From a virus (taxonomy: Duplodnaviria > Heunggongvirae > Uroviricota > Caudoviricetes), in the IMG/VR virus record IMGVR_UViG_2529292889_000002: a DNA stretch of 23,876 bases, one strand, 5' to 3'. Under the pieces are notes generated by a model, which was given only the letters and a program-made list of their open reading frames with translations, was not told the DNA's origin and did not search any database. Within the stretch, counting starts at the first letter, position 1. Every line of letters starts with the position of its first letter. The position numbers and the translations under genes are program-made. Of this stretch, positions 908 to 8,707 are shown in pieces.

Positions 908-1527
908 GACTCGAAAGCGTAGCTAAATTTCATTCGCCAAAAAGCCCGATGATGAGCGACTCACCACGGGCCACGGCTTCTGACTCTCTTTCCGGTACTG
1001 ATGTGATGGCTGCTATGGGGATGGCGCAATCACAAGCCGGATTCGGAATGGCTGTATTCTGTGGTAAGCACGAACTCAGCCAGAACGACAAACAAAAGGC
1101 TATCAACTATCTGATGCAATTTGCACACAAGGTATCGGGGAAATACCGTGGCGTGGCAAAGCTTGAAGGAAATACTAAGGCAAAGGTACTGCAAGTGCTC
1201 GCAACATTCGCTTATGCGGATTATTGCCGTAGTGCCGCTACGCCGGGCGCAAGATGCAGAGATTGCCACGGTACAGGCCGTGCGGTTGATATAGCCAAAA
1301 CAGAGCAGTGGGGGATAGTTGCTGAGAAAGAGTGCGGAAGATGTAAAGGCGTCGGTTATTCAAGAATGCCAGCAAGCGCCGCATATCGCGCTGTGACGAT
1401 GCTAATCCCAAACCTTACCCAACCCACCTGGTCACGCACTGTTAAGCCGCTGTATGACGCTCTGGTTGTGCAATGCCACAAGGAAGAGTCAATCGCAGAC
1501 AACATTTTGAATGCGATCACACGTTAG
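904..1527 (+). CDS. Q: Late-gene antitermination protein Q (lambda type, 207 aa)
   Basis: Translation is near-identical along its length to lambda Q as recalled (MRLESVAKFHSPKSPMMSDSPRATASD...CRDCHGTGRAVD...CGRCKGVGYS zinc-finger region). Ends with TAG. Confidence 0.9.
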   Translation: MRLESVAKFHSPKSPMMSDSPRATASDSLSGTDVMAAMGMAQSQAGFGMAVFCGKHELSQNDKQKAINYLMQFAHKVSGKYRGVAKLEGNTKAKVLQVLATFAYADYCRSAATPGARCRDCHGTGRAVDIAKTEQWGIVAEKECGRCKGVGYSRMPASAAYRAVTMLIPNLTQPTWSRTVKPLYDALVVQCHKEESIADNILNAITR

Positions 1528-1565
1528 CGCCATGATTGCCACGGATGGCAACATATTAACGGCAT

Positions 1566-1625
1566 AATATTGACTTTTTGAATAACTTTGGGGAAACTTG
1601 ACACCAATAATGGGCGTTTTTTACA
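1566..1625 (+). promoter_or_regulatory. pR'-like late promoter with qut-like region
   Basis: AATATTGACTTTTTGAATAACTTTGGGGAAACTTGACACC aligns with the lambda pR'/qut sequence as recalled (AATATTGACTTATTGAATAAAATTGGGTAAATTTGACTCA): -35 TTGACT at 1570-1575, 17-nt spacer, -10 equivalent GAAACT at 1593-1598 (weaker than lambda TAAATT). Confidence 0.5.
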
Positions 1626-1739
1626 TGTCATTGATGAGTCTCAATAACCTGCCGCCGAGTAGTTTTTATGCTCTGAATTGTATTTGTGTAGTAAACATGC
1701 TGACTGCAATGTAATAGAGTTTTTTTAGCCTGTAACCTC

Positions 1740-1769
1740 TTGACGGCATTGAATTGCTTTTGTTATGAG
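1740..1769 (+). promoter_or_regulatory. Candidate sigma70 promoter for the cargo gene
   Basis: TTGACG (1740-1745), 18-nt spacer, TGn-TATGAG extended -10-like (1761-1769). The -10 is imperfect and overlaps the first ATG of the maximal ORF. Confidence 0.25.
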
Positions 1770-2523
1770 TTGTAAGCCAATGTTATCATCTTGTATTGGG
1801 GTGGTTATGAAGGATGGTGCACTGCTCAGGAGTTCTTCACTTTTTATTGCCTACATGGGATGCCTTGGATGGGGGAGTGCTTATTTCTATGGATGGGGTA
1901 CTTCTTTTTACTACGGCTTCCCATGGTGGATTGTAGGTGCAGGTGTTGATGATGTTGCCAGAAGTTTATTTTTTGCAGTTATCGTCATTGCTATATTTCT
2001 TATCGGTTGGGGTATTGGTGTTGTATTCTTTTTCGCAGTGAAAAGAAAACATTCTATGCAAGAGCTAAATGTATTTCGCCTTTATTTTGCTGTGGAATTA
2101 TTGTTTGTGCCGGCAATTATTGAGTTTTCTATATTGAGACAGAAGATTCAGGTACCTCTTTTGCTACTGTCAGCAGCGATTGCGCTGGCGGTTACAATTT
2201 CGATAAGATCTTATGGGCGATTTTTATCGGTATCATGCTTCTATGATAAGCCATTTATAAAAAAACATTTTTTTGAGATTGTGATGATTGCTTTTGTGGC
2301 ATATTTCTGGCTTTTTTCATTTCTGACAGGATATTACAAACCGCAGTTTAAGAAAGAATATGAAATGATTAATTATAATGATGGTTGGTATTATGTTCTT
2401 GCTCGTTATGATAATTGTCTGGTTTTGTCTACTTCTTTCAATGCAGGTAGTAAAAGGTTTGTCATTTATCAATCAGCACAAGATAAGAATCTTCAGGTTG
2501 ATATTGTAAGGACCAGAATTTAA
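1765..2523 (+). CDS. Hypothetical polytopic integral membrane protein (cargo/moron gene; function unknown)
   Basis: Open frame of about 250 codons in a markedly AT-rich segment, where chance ORFs of this length are unlikely. Translation shows several hydrophobic helix-like stretches rich in W/F/Y/G and a C-terminal soluble tail. Start uncertain: in-frame ATGs at 1765, 1780 and 1807 (1807 has a GGGGTGG SD-like sequence 5 nt upstream). I recognise no family. Confidence 0.55.
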   Translation: MSCKPMLSSCIGVVMKDGALLRSSSLFIAYMGCLGWGSAYFYGWGTSFYYGFPWWIVGAGVDDVARSLFFAVIVIAIFLIGWGIGVVFFFAVKRKHSMQELNVFRLYFAVELLFVPAIIEFSILRQKIQVPLLLLSAAIALAVTISIRSYGRFLSVSCFYDKPFIKKHFFEIVMIAFVAYFWLFSFLTGYYKPQFKKEYEMINYNDGWYYVLARYDNCLVLSTSFNAGSKRFVIYQSAQDKNLQVDIVRTRI

Positions 2524-2656
2524 TTGGCTGCATAAATAATATTTTAAGTTGCAAGTTGGCTATTCGTAGGAATAGAACCTTAGGCATGCTGAATGCGTTT
2601 TCTGAACATTGTTTTATAAACTGTGTCTGCTTGCTGTTGTGATCCTGCTTTTAGTG

Positions 2657-2767
2657 ATGGTGATGATGGATTTCACCAGCAGGATAATGTTGGTACTGAC
2701 TGATGGCGCTCTGGTCTGCGGCATTGTGGTATTGCTGTGGCCGATGATGAAAAAACAGAATGAATAA
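2657..2767 (+). CDS. Candidate small hydrophobic peptide (36 aa; MVMMDFTSRIMLVLTDGALVCGIVVLLWPMMKKQNE)
   Basis: ATG...TAA open frame; one predicted transmembrane helix followed by a KK-containing polar tail. No clear Shine-Dalgarno; below the ORF-track length cutoff. Confidence 0.2.
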   Translation: MVMMDFTSRIMLVLTDGALVCGIVVLLWPMMKKQNE

Positions 2768-2902
2768 TCCTTGACTTTTTTGTTTACTGTTTATTAAAAA
2801 ATCAACCGCATGGTGAATCCTCCTTGGAGGGGCTAAATGATCGAGTTTTAAGGGCACGTAGCGAGTTCTGTTTGATCATTGCAGAACTTAGCGGGAGGCG
2901 CC

Positions 2903-3013
2903 ATGCGTACATCACTAATGTTATTTCCTTCTATCATTTTCCTTGTGAGTTCTGGCTGCGCATGGCGCGGCCTTTTTTTTATGACCTGCCACTGGCAGAT
3001 GGTCATCCTGTGA
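2903..3013 (+). CDS. Candidate small ORF (36 aa; MRTSLMLFPSIIFLVSSGCAWRG...) with signal-peptide/lipobox-like N-terminus
   Basis: Strong SD (GGGAGG at 2893-2898) 4 nt before ATG 2903; hydrophobic stretch ending in SSGC. The ORF spans the intrinsic terminator at 2954-2980, so it may be a gene remnant or leader rather than a functional gene. Confidence 0.2.
   Translation: MRTSLMLFPSIIFLVSSGCAWRGLFFMTCHWQMVIL
2954..2980 (+). terminator. Rho-independent terminator (+ strand)
   Basis: GGCTGCGC-ATG-GCGCGGCC: 8-bp GC-rich stem (one G-U pair), 3-nt loop, followed by T8 (2973-2980). Confidence 0.6.
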
Positions 3014-3161
3014 TTTGATTCCGGTTCCGGCTTTTTAACTCTGTTCCTGTATACGGGAGAAATTCTATGTCGATTAATCGTTATGATATTGGTTACAAGA
3101 AGTACCACGTATTGTGTTGAGATAGAAAGCCTGGTGCCAGAGGTAAATGCAGCAGCATAAT

Positions 3162-3209
3162 AAAAAAGAGCCAGCGCAGAAGAGAACGGGTAAAAGAGTC
3201 TGCGCTGGC
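3162..3209 (-). terminator. Rho-independent terminator oriented for the minus strand
   Basis: Perfect 11-bp inverted repeat GCCAGCGCAGA (3170-3180) / TCTGCGCTGGC (3199-3209) with 18-nt loop. On the minus strand the hairpin is followed by UCUUUUUU (complement of 3162-3169); on the + strand there is no T-run after it. Confidence 0.5.
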
Positions 3210-3254
3210 GTGGGGATATTCCCCGTGGAGAAATGATATGTAACACACATCGGG
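3162..3254 (-). ncRNA. Candidate small RNA of about 90 nt on the minus strand (promoter plus terminator; no protein-coding potential)
   Basis: Minus-strand promoter-like elements: -35 TTGACA (complement of 3283-3288), 16-nt spacer, -10 TATAGA (complement of 3261-3266). Predicted transcript contains a GGGGA-AUA-UCCCC hairpin and ends at the 11-bp terminator. Purely sequence-based prediction. Confidence 0.3.
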
Positions 3255-3388
3255 AACCTTTCTATATAAACATTATCATTATTGTCAATCATAACAGTCA
3301 GGTATTATGACGTTTATGCATCAGGGCCATCAGGAATTAACTGGTGGCTTTTTATTGTTGTCAGCTTCCGGATAACGGGAGACGGGGT

Positions 3389-3604
3389 ATGTACCAGATG
3401 GAAAAAATCACAACAGGTGTGTCATACACCACGTCAGCGGTGGGGACGGGATACTGGCTACTGCAGTTGCTGGACAAAGTCTCCCCATCCCAGTGGGTGG
3501 CAATAGGCGTATTGGGTAGCCTGGTGTTTGGCTTGCTGACGTATCTGACAAACCTTTATTTCAAGATTAAAGAAGATAAGCGTAAGGCTGCGAGAGGTGA
3601 ATAA
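3389..3604 (+). CDS. S: Class II holin (phage 21 S-type pinholin), 71 aa with dual start (Met1/Met4)
   Basis: [71 protein letters not shown] closely matches S21 as recalled; two TMDs; 71/68 aa products; SD GGAGACGGGG upstream; stop overlaps the endolysin start (TAATG). Confidence 0.85.
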
Positions 3605-4763: not shown

Positions 4764-5288
4764 ATGAATAATCATTCAGTTATTCCAGCCTTCGACTTCC
4801 GAGAAATGGTGCAAGCCAAAAACGGAGAGGTCGTTACCACATCCAGAAAAATTGCCAAGTACTTCGGCAAGCGACACGGTGATGTTCTCAGGAAAATCGA
4901 GCAGGTTAAGGCTGATTGCTCGCGTGAGTTTAGCCAACGCAATTTTGCGTAGGCTGATTATATCGATGAGCAGGGCAAGGTTCGCCCGATGTACAGCCTG
5001 ACGAAAGATGGCTGGATCATGGTTGTGATGGGGTTCACCGGGAAAGCTGCTGCGGCAATCAAGGAGAGCTATATCGCAGCATTCAACTGGATGGCAGAGC
5101 AACTGAGCCGCCGCATGGCAATTGGCGAAGAAATGCAGCACCGCTACGCCATCAAAGAAACACGCTCAAAGCTGAAAGGTACGATCGGCAGTCGGTTAAT
5201 GAACGAACGGAAGAAAGAGAAGCGTGTCCTGGCTGTCGAGCATGAATACATTTTGCAGGTGACACAGCCTGAACTGCTGATTAATTGA
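4764..5288 (+). pseudogene. rha: Rha-family phage regulatory protein interrupted by an in-frame amber codon (TAG at 4950-4952)
   Basis: ATG 4764 with AGGT SD. N-terminal part (MNNHSVIPAFDFREMVQ...GKRHGDVLRKIEQ) and the downstream same-frame ORF (…ADYIDEQGKVRPMYSLTKDGWIMVVMGFTGKAA…) together look like a single Rha-family protein as I recall the family; they are separated only by TAG. Confidence 0.65.
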
Positions 5289-5699
5289 AGATGTCATTAC
5301 AAAGCCTATCTACGGGTGGGCTTGATAATGGCTTATACCCTGCACGGGATAACTTAACTGATATCCCTTTTAACGGATAAAGGTATTCAAGCCTGACACA
5401 TCATGCGCTGTATCGTCGCTGTATTCCCGCATTAACCATGACCGTAGCCCGACGGGGAACTCCTTCTGCGCGAGTGTGCGGGAATAATCAAAAACGATGC
5501 ACACCGGGTTTTTACCGCGCTAATGATTCGCGGGTTTGTCCCTCATGCTCGCCAGTCCTGTGCGGGGGTGGAAGAAACAGGACACTCACACAGATTCTTG
5601 TGGGTCGATGCTATTCCTTTCTGGATTATCCCGATGCCATTCATGCAAGGGCTGTATCAGACGTTCGTCATGGCTTTCAGGCTGACGGGTCCTCCCGGT

Positions 5700-5810
5700 G
5701 GGGTGGCCTGCCACGGGGCGGGAGCGTCGCGGAAAAAGGCTAGTTTTTGAAATTTTATTCGTCATCACCACCACTGTAATTGATTGATATTACAGTGGTT
5801 TTATTTTCAT
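5700..5810. other. cos site (cosN with flanking cosB-like AT-rich region) upstream of the terminase small subunit
   Basis: ACGGGGCGGGAGCGTCGCGG (5713-5732) matches lambda cosN ACGGGGCGGCGACCTCGCGGG as recalled, followed by TTTTTGAAATTTTATTCGTCATCACC resembling lambda TTTATGAAAATTTT...TTCTTCGTCATAACT. Position just 5' of the Nu1-like gene is as expected. A 10-bp perfect hairpin (5771-5798) lies within the cosB-like part. Confidence 0.5.
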
Positions 5811-5901
5811 GGTGTCGATTCTGATTGTTTTTTGTTCATCACTAACACCGTTTGCCTAAAGTTGTTCGCAAGATGCATGTTTAAAACATTCTGGAGCGGG
5901 T

Positions 5902-6396
5902 ATGGATCGAGAGTTAAAAAATCTGACGCTGAATATCAGTCAACTGGCGGCATTGTCAGGTGTACATCGCCAGACTGCTGCGGCAAGGCTGCAAAATCTA
6001 CCCGTTGCAGGGGGGCATGAAAGCAACCTCAAGCTTTATCGGGTGGTTGATATTGTGTCGGCATTTCTGGCATTACCACCGCCGGTTGCAGAAGGCGAAA
6101 TGGACGCGCATGAGCGCAAAGCCTGGTATCAGTCTGAACGTGAGCGTCTTAAGTTCGAACAGGAAACGGCACAACTCATTCCGGCCAGTGATGTCAGACG
6201 GGAGTTTGCCATCTGGGCAAAAGCGGTCGTGCAGGTGCTGGAGACATTACCGGATATTCTTGAACGTGACTGCGGTCTGCAGCCTGCCGCTGTGAGCCGT
6301 GTTCAGTCCATTATTGATGATCTGCGCGATCAGATAGCCCTGCGGGTGACTGAAGCAGGTGCGGATGATGAGGAGGAATTACAGCAGGAGGAGTAA
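5902..6396 (+). CDS. Terminase small subunit (Nu1-like DNA-binding packaging protein)
   Basis: 164 aa; N-terminal HTH-like segment (ISQLAALSGVHRQTAAARL), acidic C-terminus; GGAG SD; directly precedes and overlaps the large terminase (TAATG). Confidence 0.8.
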   Translation: MDRELKNLTLNISQLAALSGVHRQTAAARLQNLPVAGGHESNLKLYRVVDIVSAFLALPPPVAEGEMDAHERKAWYQSERERLKFEQETAQLIPASDVRREFAIWAKAVVQVLETLPDILERDCGLQPAAVSRVQSIIDDLRDQIALRVTEAGADDEEELQQEE

Positions 6397-8498
6397 TGCT
6401 GAATCAGGAAACCGCAAAGGCAGCACGAACCGATTCAGGTTATATCCTTCGCGCACCGAGACGAATGCGGGTTGCTGATGCCGTTGCTCAGTATATGCGG
6501 GTGCCCATGGGGGCAGGGAACTCAGTCCCGTGGGATCCGCTGGTGGCACCGTATGTTATTGAGCCTATGAACTGCCTGGCCTCGCGTGAATACGACGCAG
6601 TGATATTTGTTGGCCCGGCACGAACCGGCAAGACTATCGGCCTGATTGACGGCTGGGTGATTTACAACGTGATTTGCGAGCCTGCTGATATGCTGATCAT
6701 TCAGATGACGGAGGAAAAAGCCCGCGAACACTCCAAAAAACGACTCGCCAGAACGTTTCGCGTCAGCCCGGAAGTGGTCAGTCGCCTGAGTCCGAACAAA
6801 AATGACAACAACGTTTATGACAGAACATTCCTTGCTGGCAACTACCTGAAAATCGGCTGGCCGTCAGTCAATATCATGTCTTCATCAGATTATAAATGCG
6901 TGGCGCTGACGGATTATGACCGTTTTCCGGAAGATATTGATGGTGAGGGGGATGCCTTCTCTCTTGCCTCAAAACGTACCACCACATTTATGTCCAGTGG
7001 TATGACGCTGGTGGAGAGTTCCCCCGGCAGGGATGTGAAGGATGTGAAATGGCGACGGACTTCACCGCATGAGGCTCCACCAACCACGGGGATCCTGTCG
7101 CTCTATAACCGTGGCGATCGCCGTCGCTGGTACTGGCCCTGTCCACACTGTGGTGAGTATTTTCAGCCCTGCGGCGATGTGGTTGCTGGTTTCCGTGATA
7201 TTGCCGATCCTGTGCTGGCAAGTGAGGCGGCTTATATTCAGTGTCCTTCCTGTTCAGGACGGATTTTGCCTGAACAAAAACGCGAGCTGAACGGACGTGG
7301 GGTCTGGTTACGGGATGGTGAATCCATCAATGCAGATGGCAGTCGTTATGGTGATCCCCGACGTTCACGTATTGCGTCATTCTGGATGGAGGGTCCGGCA
7401 GCTGCTTATCAGACACTCTCGCAACTCGTTTACAAACTGCTTACTGCAGAACAGGAATACGAGACAACCGGAAGTGAAGAGACACTCAAGACGGTTATCA
7501 ATACCGACTGGGGATTACCTTATCTTCCCCGCGCCAGCATGGAGCAACGAAAAAGTGAATTGCTTGAGCAGCGGGCAGAGCCAGTTCCTTCCCGCAGTGT
7601 GCCGGATGGCGTTAATTTCCTTGTGGCGACAGTGGATGTGCAGGCGGGACGTCATCGCCGTTTTGTGGTTCAGGTAACGGGCTATGGCAGCCGTGGCGAA
7701 CGCTGGATTATTGATCGTTACAACATCACGCAGTCATTGCGCGGTGACAGCGACGGGGAGAGCCAGCGAATTGATCCGGCCAGCTATCCGGAAGACTGGG
7801 ATGTCCTGCTGACGGATGTTTTTCATAAAAGCTGGCCGCTGGCCTCCGACCCTTCTCAACAAATGCGACTGATGGCAATGGCGGTGGACTCCGGCGGTGA
7901 AGACGGGGTCACTGATAATGCCTATAAATTCTGGCGTCGTTGCCGTCGTGATGGCCTTGGTAAACGTATTTACCTGTTTAAGGGCGACAGCATCCGGCGC
8001 GCAAAACTGATCACCCGTACATTCCCTGATAACACCGGACGAACGGGCCGACGGGCGCAGGCCGCAGGTGATGTGCCGCTCTGGCTTCTTCAGACGGATG
8101 CCCTGAAAGACCGGGTGAATAACGCGTTATGGCGTGACTCGCCAGGTCCCGGCTATGTGCATTTCCCTGACTGGCTGGGGAGCTGGTTTTACGACGAACT
8201 GACGTATGAAGAGCGGAGCAGTGACGGGAAATGGAGTAAGCCGGGTCGCGGTGCCAACGAAGCTTTTGACCTGATGGTGTATGCCGAGGCTCTGGTCATT
8301 CTGCATGGATACGAAAAGATCCGCTGGCCGGATGCACCGGAGTGGGCGAGCCGGGAAACCTGGCTGGAGTGTGTCCCGGACAGTACCGAACCGTCACCCT
8401 CACCGGAACCGGTATCCACGCCTGTTAAAAAACAAAAACGGAAGAAAACAGTAACTGACGATGTTAACCCCTGGCTGACTTCCGGAGGATGGTTATGA
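6396..8498 (+). CDS. Terminase large subunit (GpA-like ATPase/nuclease)
   Basis: 700 aa; Walker A-like VGPARTGKT near the N-terminus; GGAGGAG SD; canonical position. Confidence 0.9.
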   Translation: MLNQETAKAARTDSGYILRAPRRMRVADAVAQYMRVPMGAGNSVPWDPLVAPYVIEPMNCLASREYDAVIFVGPARTGKTIGLIDGWVIYNVICEPADMLIIQMTEEKAREHSKKRLARTFRVSPEVVSRLSPNKNDNNVYDRTFLAGNYLKIGWPSVNIMSSSDYKCVALTDYDRFPEDIDGEGDAFSLASKRTTTFMSSGMTLVESSPGRDVKDVKWRRTSPHEAPPTTGILSLYNRGDRRRWYWPCPHCGEYFQPCGDVVAGFRDIADPVLASEAAYIQCPSCSGRILPEQKRELNGRGVWLRDGESINADGSRYGDPRRSRIASFWMEGPAAAYQTLSQLVYKLLTAEQEYETTGSEETLKTVINTDWGLPYLPRASMEQRKSELLEQRAEPVPSRSVPDGVNFLVATVDVQAGRHRRFVVQVTGYGSRGERWIIDRYNITQSLRGDSDGESQRIDPASYPEDWDVLLTDVFHKSWPLASDPSQQMRLMAMAVDSGGEDGVTDNAYKFWRRCRRDGLGKRIYLFKGDSIRRAKLITRTFPDNTGRTGRRAQAAGDVPLWLLQTDALKDRVNNALWRDSPGPGYVHFPDWLGSWFYDELTYEERSSDGKWSKPGRGANEAFDLMVYAEALVILHGYEKIRWPDAPEWASRETWLECVPDSTEPSPSPEPVSTPVKKQKRKKTVTDDVNPWLTSGGWL

Positions 8499-8707
8499 AT
8501 CAGAATGATATTGAAGCCATGATTCAGCGTTATACGGAAGCTGAAATGGCGGTGCTTGACGGAAAATCCGTCACTTTTAATGGTCAGCAGATGACCATGG
8601 AAAACTTATCTGAGATCCGGCAGGGGCGGCAGGAGTGGGAGCGCCGCCTTGCGGCTCTGATTACACGACGACGTGGGCATCCCGGGTACCGGCTGGCGAG
8701 GTTCTGA
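8495..8707 (+). CDS. Head-tail joining protein (lambda gpW-like)
   Basis: About 70 aa (MNQNDIEAMIQRYTEAEMAVLDGKSVTFNGQQMTMENLSEIRQ...RRRGHPGY), similar in size and pattern to lambda W. Second ATG chosen because GGAGG abuts the first ATG at 8489. Confidence 0.7.
   Translation: MNQNDIEAMIQRYTEAEMAVLDGKSVTFNGQQMTMENLSEIRQGRQEWERRLAALITRRRGHPGYRLARF

Follow-up and report, generated by a model that had tools for sequence, protein, structure and literature searches.

The DNA stretch analyzed here (IMG/VR record IMGVR_UViG_2529292889_000002, 23,876 nucleotides, in the following referred to as the window) is a lambdoid Escherichia coli prophage that carries an AT-rich open reading frame (ORF) between the antiterminator gene Q and the lysis genes. 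The product of this ORF belongs to the TfpB/STM1630 family, which is catalogued and named, yet uncharacterised. Tentatively, we favor the reading that the gene is a moron, i.e. a self-contained unit of a promoter and one gene carried as phage cargo, and that its main benefit may lie with the bacterial host in animals. By sequence and family the gene is already known and represents a catalogued orphan, not a new system.

1807-2523, plus strand: 238-aa inner-membrane protein (predicted) of the TfpB/STM1630 family

Family membership

The product of 1807-2523 is identical to WP_001299184.1, which is named 'STM1630 family protein' by the NCBI annotation pipeline (PGAP). The Pfam family PF27470 ('TfpB') is present as a precomputed assignment (PF27470.1) on the cluster with the identical protein and on all 108 homologs, and the match to phrog_1521 (unknown function) covers the full profile with an expectation value (E) of 2.1e-154. 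Local Pfam-A and NCBIfam scans of the ORF gave no match; PF27470 exists only in a newer Pfam release. In the original prediction, made from the sequence alone, no family had been recognised and the gene had been regarded as the best candidate in the window for an undescribed system. Neither statement holds, since the ORF belongs to the family described above, an identical protein is annotated in phage 434 (OL657226, gene 68, CPT_434_68, UMO75332.1, 'putative membrane protein'; 100% protein and 99.6% DNA identity), and an allele with at least 99% DNA identity was found in 679 records among the complete E. coli genomes. The authors of the phage 434 genome, using HHpred and TMHMM, assigned only 'membrane protein' (PMC9119081).

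The family is small: when 1.84 billion proteins are clustered at 50%, it has 70 representatives. It comprises three subgroups: an enterobacterial, STM1630-like one, one from Klebsiella, Enterobacter and Mangrovibacter, and one from Moraxella, Pasteurellaceae and Neisseriaceae. All hosts (Enterobacteriaceae, Pasteurellaceae, Moraxella and Neisseriaceae) are animal-associated, and the gene often lies outside prophages. Based on alignments, the AlphaFold model and loop charges, the window protein shows the architecture common to the family: about 240 aa, which start with an aromatic/glycine-rich motif and continue through four to five helices to a beta domain at the C-terminus.

The name of PF27470 is taken from Moraxella TfpB, an ORF inside an invertible type IV pilin gene segment. 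The profile search reaches loci of M. bovis, M. lacunata and M. equi that are flanked by inverted pilin gene segments, and the family gene found there corresponds to the tfpB ORF known classically from pilin inversion; a literature search for Moraxella tfpB returned no paper. TfpB of M. bovis and M. lacunata resembles the window protein in length, in the conserved N-terminal motif and in the C-terminal strands at about 25-30% identity, whereas its setting, the type IV pilin inversion region, is different. A search of 34 Pasteurellaceae, Moraxella and Neisseriaceae loci for conserved neighbors found none beyond the Moraxella pilin segments. In the Klebsiella subgroup, the copy (loci L058-L060, ~5274-8517) lies between an SRAP (YedK-like) gene and a umuDC-like pair and adjoins a reverse transcriptase and a resolvase, a mobile context unlike that of the E. 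coli copies.

Start, composition and selection

The longest reading of the ORF starts with the ATG at 1765 and comprises 252 aa. This reading was rejected, since the ATG is not conserved and sits within a putative -10 element. Only the ATG or GTG at position 1807 is kept across homologs from unrelated contexts, together with a GAGGG-type Shine-Dalgarno sequence, while the sequence 5' of 1807 shows no coding conservation across homologs.

1798..1804, plus strand: Shine-Dalgarno-like GGGGTGG; a purine-rich GAGGG or GGGG motif is kept at this position across homologs

Since Shine-Dalgarno sequence and start codon are conserved here and the upstream sequence is not conserved as coding, the start was placed at 1807, as is also done in the newest PGAP records. 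Of the originally predicted main ORF of about 240-250 aa, the intact frame ending at 2523 was retained, while the start had to be moved to 1807 (238 aa) from 1765 (252 aa). The ORF has a GC content of 36.4% (30.7% at third codon positions, GC3) compared to about 50-54% in the flanking phage genes, in agreement with the predicted AT-richness. Comparison with the alleles of a prophage with the gene in the stx slot (stx, Shiga toxin genes), the Citrobacter rodentium chromosome, a plasmid of enterotoxigenic E. coli (ETEC) and Salmonella gave ratios of nonsynonymous to synonymous substitutions (dN/dS) of 0.12-0.18, with synonymous sites near saturation. Since these low ratios were obtained across contexts, the ORF is, judged by its substitution pattern, a real gene under purifying selection.

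Distribution and genomic contexts

Among 5426 complete E. coli genomes, 1197 (~22%) contain a family member. Carriers include O157:H7, O26, O103, O111 and enteropathogenic E. coli (EPEC) E2348/69; the family also occurs in phage 434, on the virulence plasmid of Shigella and on toxin plasmids of ETEC. The prophage copies are always located between Q and the lysis genes and are co-directional with the late operon. Besides that of the window, at least four prophage backgrounds have other alleles in this slot. In phage 434 and the O157 prophage, the context comprises a Q82-type antiterminator with lpxR upstream. In Stx-like prophages, a methyltransferase gene and tRNA genes come before the family gene, and lpxR (with pmrD in one case), nanS-p and the holin gene come after it, which is the position of stx; in prophage WY517-2, it comes directly after another Q.

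Outside prophages, the ETEC IncFII plasmids (loci L003-L008, 5987-8714) carry the gene divergent from eltAB, encoding the heat-labile enterotoxin LT-I, and near the heat-stable enterotoxin STb and insertion sequence (IS) elements. On the plasmid pINV of Shigella and enteroinvasive E. coli (EIEC), a 57%-identical copy was found between IS elements in 106 plasmids including pWR501 (L056, 6001-6717), and it is conserved across S. flexneri, S. sonnei, S. boydii and S. dysenteriae. Further copies lie in a pap island and in an iroBC/bor island (also in CFT073). The Salmonella copy adjoins sseJ, and the C. rodentium copy (66% identity) is found at the syntenic site, where it adjoins lpxR.

A search for prophage DNA flanking the ETEC and Salmonella copies showed that only the gene itself matches the window. 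Both the WY517-2 prophage allele (L055, directly after Q) and the iro-island allele show 75-80% identity to the ETEC allele. This comparison suggests an origin of the plasmid and island copies by capture from cargo slots of prophages, and it hints at a relic of such a slot in the LT-I locus. The family gene would mark DNA that has travelled between the Q-to-lysis 'toxin slot' of prophages and toxin loci on plasmids or islands (LT-I, LT-II, pertussis-like toxin).

Two side observations concern the neighbors of family members. On a contig labelled Cronobacter sp. EKM101R, the family gene lies between two AB5 toxin operons; this lambdoid prophage (L061, 2070-9369) comprises Q, LT-II A/B, a Q fragment, the TfpB-family gene, a pertussis-like toxin (S2S3, S1), holins and an endolysin. 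Moreover, lpxR was found 0.2-1.4 kb from the family member in three gene orders (L018, 1237-2196; L053, 2667-3626; L009-L011, ~6970-7919; L012, 4863-5823), and pmrD is also present in L010.

The Salmonella homolog STM1630

The only family member with experimental data is STM1630 (SL1344_1560; P0074), and P0074 was identified as STM1630 by its position beside sseJ and by a published knockout primer encoding NSSMLLAYLGGLGWG. Compared to the window protein, it shows 46% identity over the full 238 aa (E 1e-70) and the same architecture, and its gene is likewise AT-rich (37% GC). STM1630 has its own promoter. Unlike the window gene, STM1630 is a fixed chromosomal gene between steB and sseJ and not prophage cargo. 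The sequences have diverged, and the functional equivalence of the two genes is an assumption.

STM1630 belongs to a gene set co-regulated with virulence regulators (the regulon of Salmonella pathogenicity island 2, SPI-2), is bound by H-NS, and shows expression both within macrophages and in medium that induces SPI-2. Attenuation of mutants has been reported for calves and chicks, and deletion in strain 4/74 resulted in more replication within macrophages. The promoter has been mapped, and the loss of expression in ST313 accompanies two single-nucleotide polymorphisms in the -10 element; in S. Typhi the gene is absent. As a widespread orphan the family is tractable, since the Salmonella colonisation phenotypes and the 66%-identical C. 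rodentium copy suit a mouse model.

Comparison with phage 434

Phage 434 and the window have a block of 1.45 kb in common (1646-3091, 97.7% identity). In both, the target gene is followed by a DUF3927 gene ('TciB' in phage 434) and then by a terminator.

2609-2767, plus strand: DUF3927/TciB-like small membrane protein, 52 aa (Pfam PF13064, E 1.4e-14; phrog_1470)

The sequence ahead of the block consists of a Q82-type antiterminator gene and an intact terminator in phage 434, whereas the window shows a lambda-type Q and late promoter pR' with a decayed terminator. Furthermore, phage 434 differs from the window by a SASA esterase gene before the holin gene. In phage 434B, the whole region is replaced by DNA of the DLP12 prophage and plaques are still formed (PMC9119081). 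Since 434B plaques without this region, the target gene is dispensable for lytic growth and plaque formation.

Expression signals and terminators

The following elements were located around the target gene:

1570..1605, plus strand: lambda-type late promoter pR' with the region bound by Q; the counterpart is lambda 44482-44585, with near identity up to about the start site
1646..1673, plus strand: decayed terminator remnant, also the left end of the block common to phage 434
1740..1769, plus strand: promoter-like element with TTGACG (1740-1745), an 18-nt spacer and TG-n-TATGAG (1764-1769)
2954-2980, plus strand: first strong intrinsic terminator (8-bp stem with 7 G-C pairs, T8; -17 kcal/mol, z-score -2.85), with a counterpart annotated in phage 434
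3323-3356, plus strand: second terminator-like hairpin (11-bp stem, T-rich tail, z-score -2.75) just 5' of the holin gene, with an equivalent annotated in phage 434

The promoter-like element directly upstream of the gene was found with the same layout and at a corresponding distance from the start codon in 7 of 9 unrelated contexts, with a TTGAC-type hexamer at -52 to -74, a spacing of 17-18 nt and a hexamer starting with TA, usually after TG. A count of promoter-like matches in the region gave 5, compared to 5.7 expected from shuffled sequence. Since single matches are not above chance, the evidence for an own promoter is the conservation across contexts, and the originally predicted promoter-like signal is confirmed as a conserved element but not as an enrichment of single matches. 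The DNA homology to the ETEC-plasmid and iro-island copies starts at 1728-1736, i.e. 4-12 nt upstream of the -35 hexamer, and the protein similarity to these copies extends to the stop codon. Since the homology starts just 5' of the -35 hexamer and runs to the stop, promoter-like element and gene can be regarded as a portable unit of about 800 bp.

The intrinsic terminator that had been predicted to follow the ORF was not found there. Directly after the ORF, 2521-2615 contains no significant hairpin and folds no better than shuffled sequence, and the first strong terminator lies only after DUF3927, at 2954-2980. Upstream of the gene, the intact terminator of phage 434 (L018, 3407-3434) and of the O157:H7 prophage (L053, ~4835-4862), both of which have a Q82-type antiterminator, comprises AACCCGCTGCCGAGTGGG followed by T7-8 (-13.3 kcal/mol, z-score -3.6). 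The corresponding sequence of the window (1646-1673) shows stem mutations, a 4-nt deletion and only T5, resulting in -5.1 kcal/mol and a z-score of -0.2.

The pR' promoter has a -35 hexamer TTGACT (1570-1575) and a -10 hexamer GAAACT (1593-1598), and by analogy with lambda transcription would start near 1605. The DNA 3' of Q tracks lambda almost base for base up to about 1605, where the lambda homology stops. In lambda, pR' without Q yields only the 194-nt 6S RNA. Since the upstream terminator of the window is decayed and no other terminator was found between pR' and the target gene or before 2954, it is predicted that constitutive transcription from pR' probably reads into the target gene and DUF3927 up to 2980.

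Protein architecture

Hydropathy analysis revealed four strong hydrophobic segments (residues 52-78, 89-110, 116-135 and 155-176), preceded by an aromatic/glycine-rich N-terminal helix (~10-31) and followed by a hydrophilic C-terminal region. The AlphaFold model based on an alignment of 65 sequences, including distant subfamilies, reached a predicted local distance difference test (pLDDT) of 76 and a predicted template modeling score (pTM) of 0.69 and comprises five long helices and a five-stranded beta domain (184-235). With 17 close homologs only, the pLDDT was 56 and the model was too poor for use. The predicted multi-helix membrane protein with a soluble C-terminal tail of about 60 aa is consequently supported by hydropathy and AlphaFold, which predict the helices and a beta domain of about 55 aa.

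The mean numbers of lysine and arginine residues over the 65 sequences were 1.8 for the N-terminus, 0.1 for loop 1, 2.8 for loop 2, 0.8 for loop 3 and 3.2 for loop 4. Since these loop charges fit the positive-inside rule, the N-terminus is predicted to be cytoplasmic, followed by five helices and a periplasmic C-terminal SH3-like beta domain. The best-conserved stretches are GWGSAYFYGWGxSFYYGFPWW with the following D..ARSL and the start of the beta domain, YKPQxKKEY...WYYVLARY. On the predicted topology, both of these parts would face the periplasm.

Across the whole family, the 65-sequence alignment contains no invariant column. Near-invariance is limited to A, Y, G, P, F and the initiator M; acidic, basic and histidine residues do not reach it in this alignment. 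Catalytic polar residues and a recognisable fold, as expected for membrane enzymes such as acyltransferases, glycosyltransferases or prophage O-antigen modifiers, were not found. Since no polar residue is conserved across the whole family, an enzymatic function is argued against. Fold and profile searches of PDB and BFVD revealed no characterised relative: Foldseek gave a best E of 1.1 against PDB, with weak, non-significant matches to SH3-like domains and MscS, and a best E of 0.078 with a TM-score below 0.2 against BFVD, and a profile search of the PDB sequences gave no match.

Role of the gene and alternative explanations

The preferred reading, cargo that mainly benefits the bacterial host in animals, is based on several observations. 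The composition of the gene is atypical, and its presence differs among relatives, since the gene is missing both from lambda, which has the same Q and pR', and from 434B. The predicted moron layout is supported by the AT-rich cargo in the Q-to-lysis slot, by its dispensability in 434B and by the promoter-like element that travels with it, but not by a terminator, which is missing directly after the gene. In this respect the gene resembles the lambdoid morons bor, lom, lpxR, stx and LT-II, likewise AT-rich, non-essential late-region cargo, which have own expression signals; the slot in which the TfpB/STM1630 family is found is also that of stx and LT-II. These morons encode outer-membrane or secreted proteins of known function, whereas the window gene encodes a predicted inner-membrane protein.

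On this reading, the inner-membrane protein would bind or occlude an envelope component without catalysis. In the lysogen it would probably be expressed from two sources, its own promoter (likely silenced by H-NS as in Salmonella) and read-through from pR', while the terminators at 2954 and 3323 would keep transcription out of the lysis genes until Q acts; induction would lead to its strong expression along with the late operon. The benefit would lie with the bacterial host in animals, by envelope adaptation or colonisation, and neither with phage growth nor specifically with phage defence. Several points weigh against this reading. The Salmonella phenotypes are modest and mixed, with no macrophage effect of STM1630 in D23580, a hypermotility of the mutant from one screen that was not reproduced, and an apparent essentiality in transposon screens that was attributed to H-NS. 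The fixed position and direction of the prophage copies in the late operon could also mean a role in lytic growth. As to expression, the -10 hexamers of the promoter-like element are without the usual final T and single matches are at chance level, and read-through is weakened by a pR' -10 hexamer (GAAACT) weaker than that of lambda and by possible Rho-dependent termination.

Superinfection exclusion or abortive infection had originally been named among the common functions of such cargo; the analysis gave no indication of either. A barrier in the envelope that excludes phages or colicins, blocking the entry of DNA or toxin via the periplasmic face, perhaps together with DUF3927, would fit the moron position, the own promoter-like element, the predicted expression in the lysogen and a polytopic inner-membrane protein without catalytic signature, and many divergent alleles (45-80% identity) circulate in E. 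coli. Also phrog_1470, to which the neighboring DUF3927 belongs, is annotated as 'TciB-like inhibition of cell division or resistance to colicin'; against this, DUF3927 is found only with the phage 434-type allele. T4 Imm, P22 SieA and HK97 gp15 are inner-membrane exclusion proteins of phages or prophages without enzymatic motifs, to which the window protein bears a general likeness only: it shows no sequence, profile or fold similarity to them, nor any structural or profile similarity to known exclusion proteins, and unlike them the TfpB/STM1630 family has many stable non-phage copies (Salmonella, C. rodentium, Pasteurellaceae, Moraxella, Shigella pINV). The PADLOC-DB v2 models gave no match to the target and the two neighboring ORFs, even with E up to 1. 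Furthermore, the Salmonella copy shares its regulation with the virulence regulon of SPI-2, and the periplasmic motifs are conserved while the membrane core is variable, whereas an arms-race interface would be expected to vary at the phage contact. Altogether, since there are stable non-phage copies, locations on virulence plasmids and islands, animal-associated hosts, and regulation and phenotypes in Salmonella that concern colonisation, and since a defence signature is missing, host or envelope adaptation is ranked above exclusion or defence, which we consider rather unlikely.

Other explanations were given less weight than exclusion. The occurrence of lpxR within 0.2-1.4 kb in phage 434/O157, in stx-slot prophages and on the C. 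rodentium chromosome would be explained if the protein were a partner of the outer-membrane lipid A deacylase LpxR (and of PmrD) in the remodeling of lipid A or lipopolysaccharide, for example by controlling, at the inner membrane, the substrate supply or the activity of LpxR. This is improbable: neither the window nor seven other context classes contain lpxR, the two genes, being AT-rich morons, may just have insertion sites in common, conserved polar residues are missing and no conserved neighbor exists in Pasteurellaceae. Slightly more improbable still is a late-phase accessory function, in which a Q-dependent product would modulate when lysis occurs or how periplasmic cargo, for instance AB5 toxins, is released. 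The constant co-directional position between Q and the lysis genes, the occupation of the stx slot (tRNAs upstream, nanS-p downstream) and the copies between LT-II and pertussis-like toxin operons and beside LT-I are in line with such a function. A common cargo slot is by itself enough to bring toxins and the family gene together; moreover, no toxin genes lie beside the copies in the window, phage 434 and O157, 434B grows without the region, and many copies have neither phage nor toxin nearby. Finally, we give hardly any credit to a functionless, hitch-hiking remnant. No E. coli phenotype is known, Salmonella ST313 has a naturally inactivated promoter and S. Typhi is without the gene, loci of the Moraxella lacunata type contain frameshifted and truncated ORFs, and a few frameshifted database variants exist (P0094, P0095, P0108). 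In contrast, the dN/dS of 0.12-0.18 across contexts with nearly saturated synonymous sites, the coverage of at least 80% of the gene length in 767 complete E. coli genomes, a protein sequence that modern isolates have in common with a phage isolated in the 1950s, and the retention on Shigella pINV all speak for a maintained gene.

Going beyond the preferred reading of host-benefiting cargo, it can be speculated, with little confidence, that TfpB/STM1630 proteins form an unrecognised class of lysogenic-conversion factor. These non-enzymatic inner-membrane proteins would expose the conserved aromatic loop and the SH3-like domain to the periplasm and bind a conserved envelope machine, for instance one by which phages, colicins, pili or AB5 toxins are imported or secreted. 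If true, this would explain the shuttling among the prophage toxin slot, virulence plasmids (LT-I, pINV) and islands of mucosal pathogens, and constitutive expression from pR' would here be wired through the loss of the terminator between pR' and the gene.

Neighboring genes and organization of the window

The left part of the window comprises, in order, a DUF1364 gene, rusA, a small ORF, Q, the target ORF, DUF3927, an S21-type holin gene, a signal-anchor-release (SAR) endolysin gene, Rz, Rha and the terminase gene.

904-1527: Q, 98% identity to lambda Q
3389-3604: S21-type holin gene

The gap between Q and S amounts to 1861 bp in the window compared to 676 bp in lambda. The original estimates of a gap of only about 200 bp in lambda and of about 1.8 kb of extra DNA have to be corrected accordingly, the excess being about 1.2 kb. 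Rfam and tRNA scans of the window gave no match.

The DUF3927 gene was co-transferred with the phage 434-type allele and is absent beside other alleles. Small ORFs around the terminator were considered as partners of the target gene and rejected, since they are frameshifted in close relatives. A 36-aa hydrophobic ORF, MRTSLMLFPSIIFLVSSGCAWRGLFFMTCHWQMVIL (2893-3003), whose ribosome-binding site is GGGAGG, overlaps with the hairpin of the terminator. Owing to a deletion of 1 nt it is in another frame in phage 434, where a 62-aa membrane protein is annotated. Coding by this ORF is doubtful. Likewise, the minus-strand ORF 2848-3246 (132 aa, 'hypothetical protein' in PGAP) was rejected as a partner, since it is frameshifted in O157:H7 86-24; it has no family match. 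It spans the break in the phage 434 homology at 3091 and is probably not a gene.

The prophage of the window shows 99.9% identity to one in EPEC E2348/69 and is also present in many strains. At least 80% of window positions 1500-3400 is covered in 586 complete genomes, which indicates that the arrangement is common.

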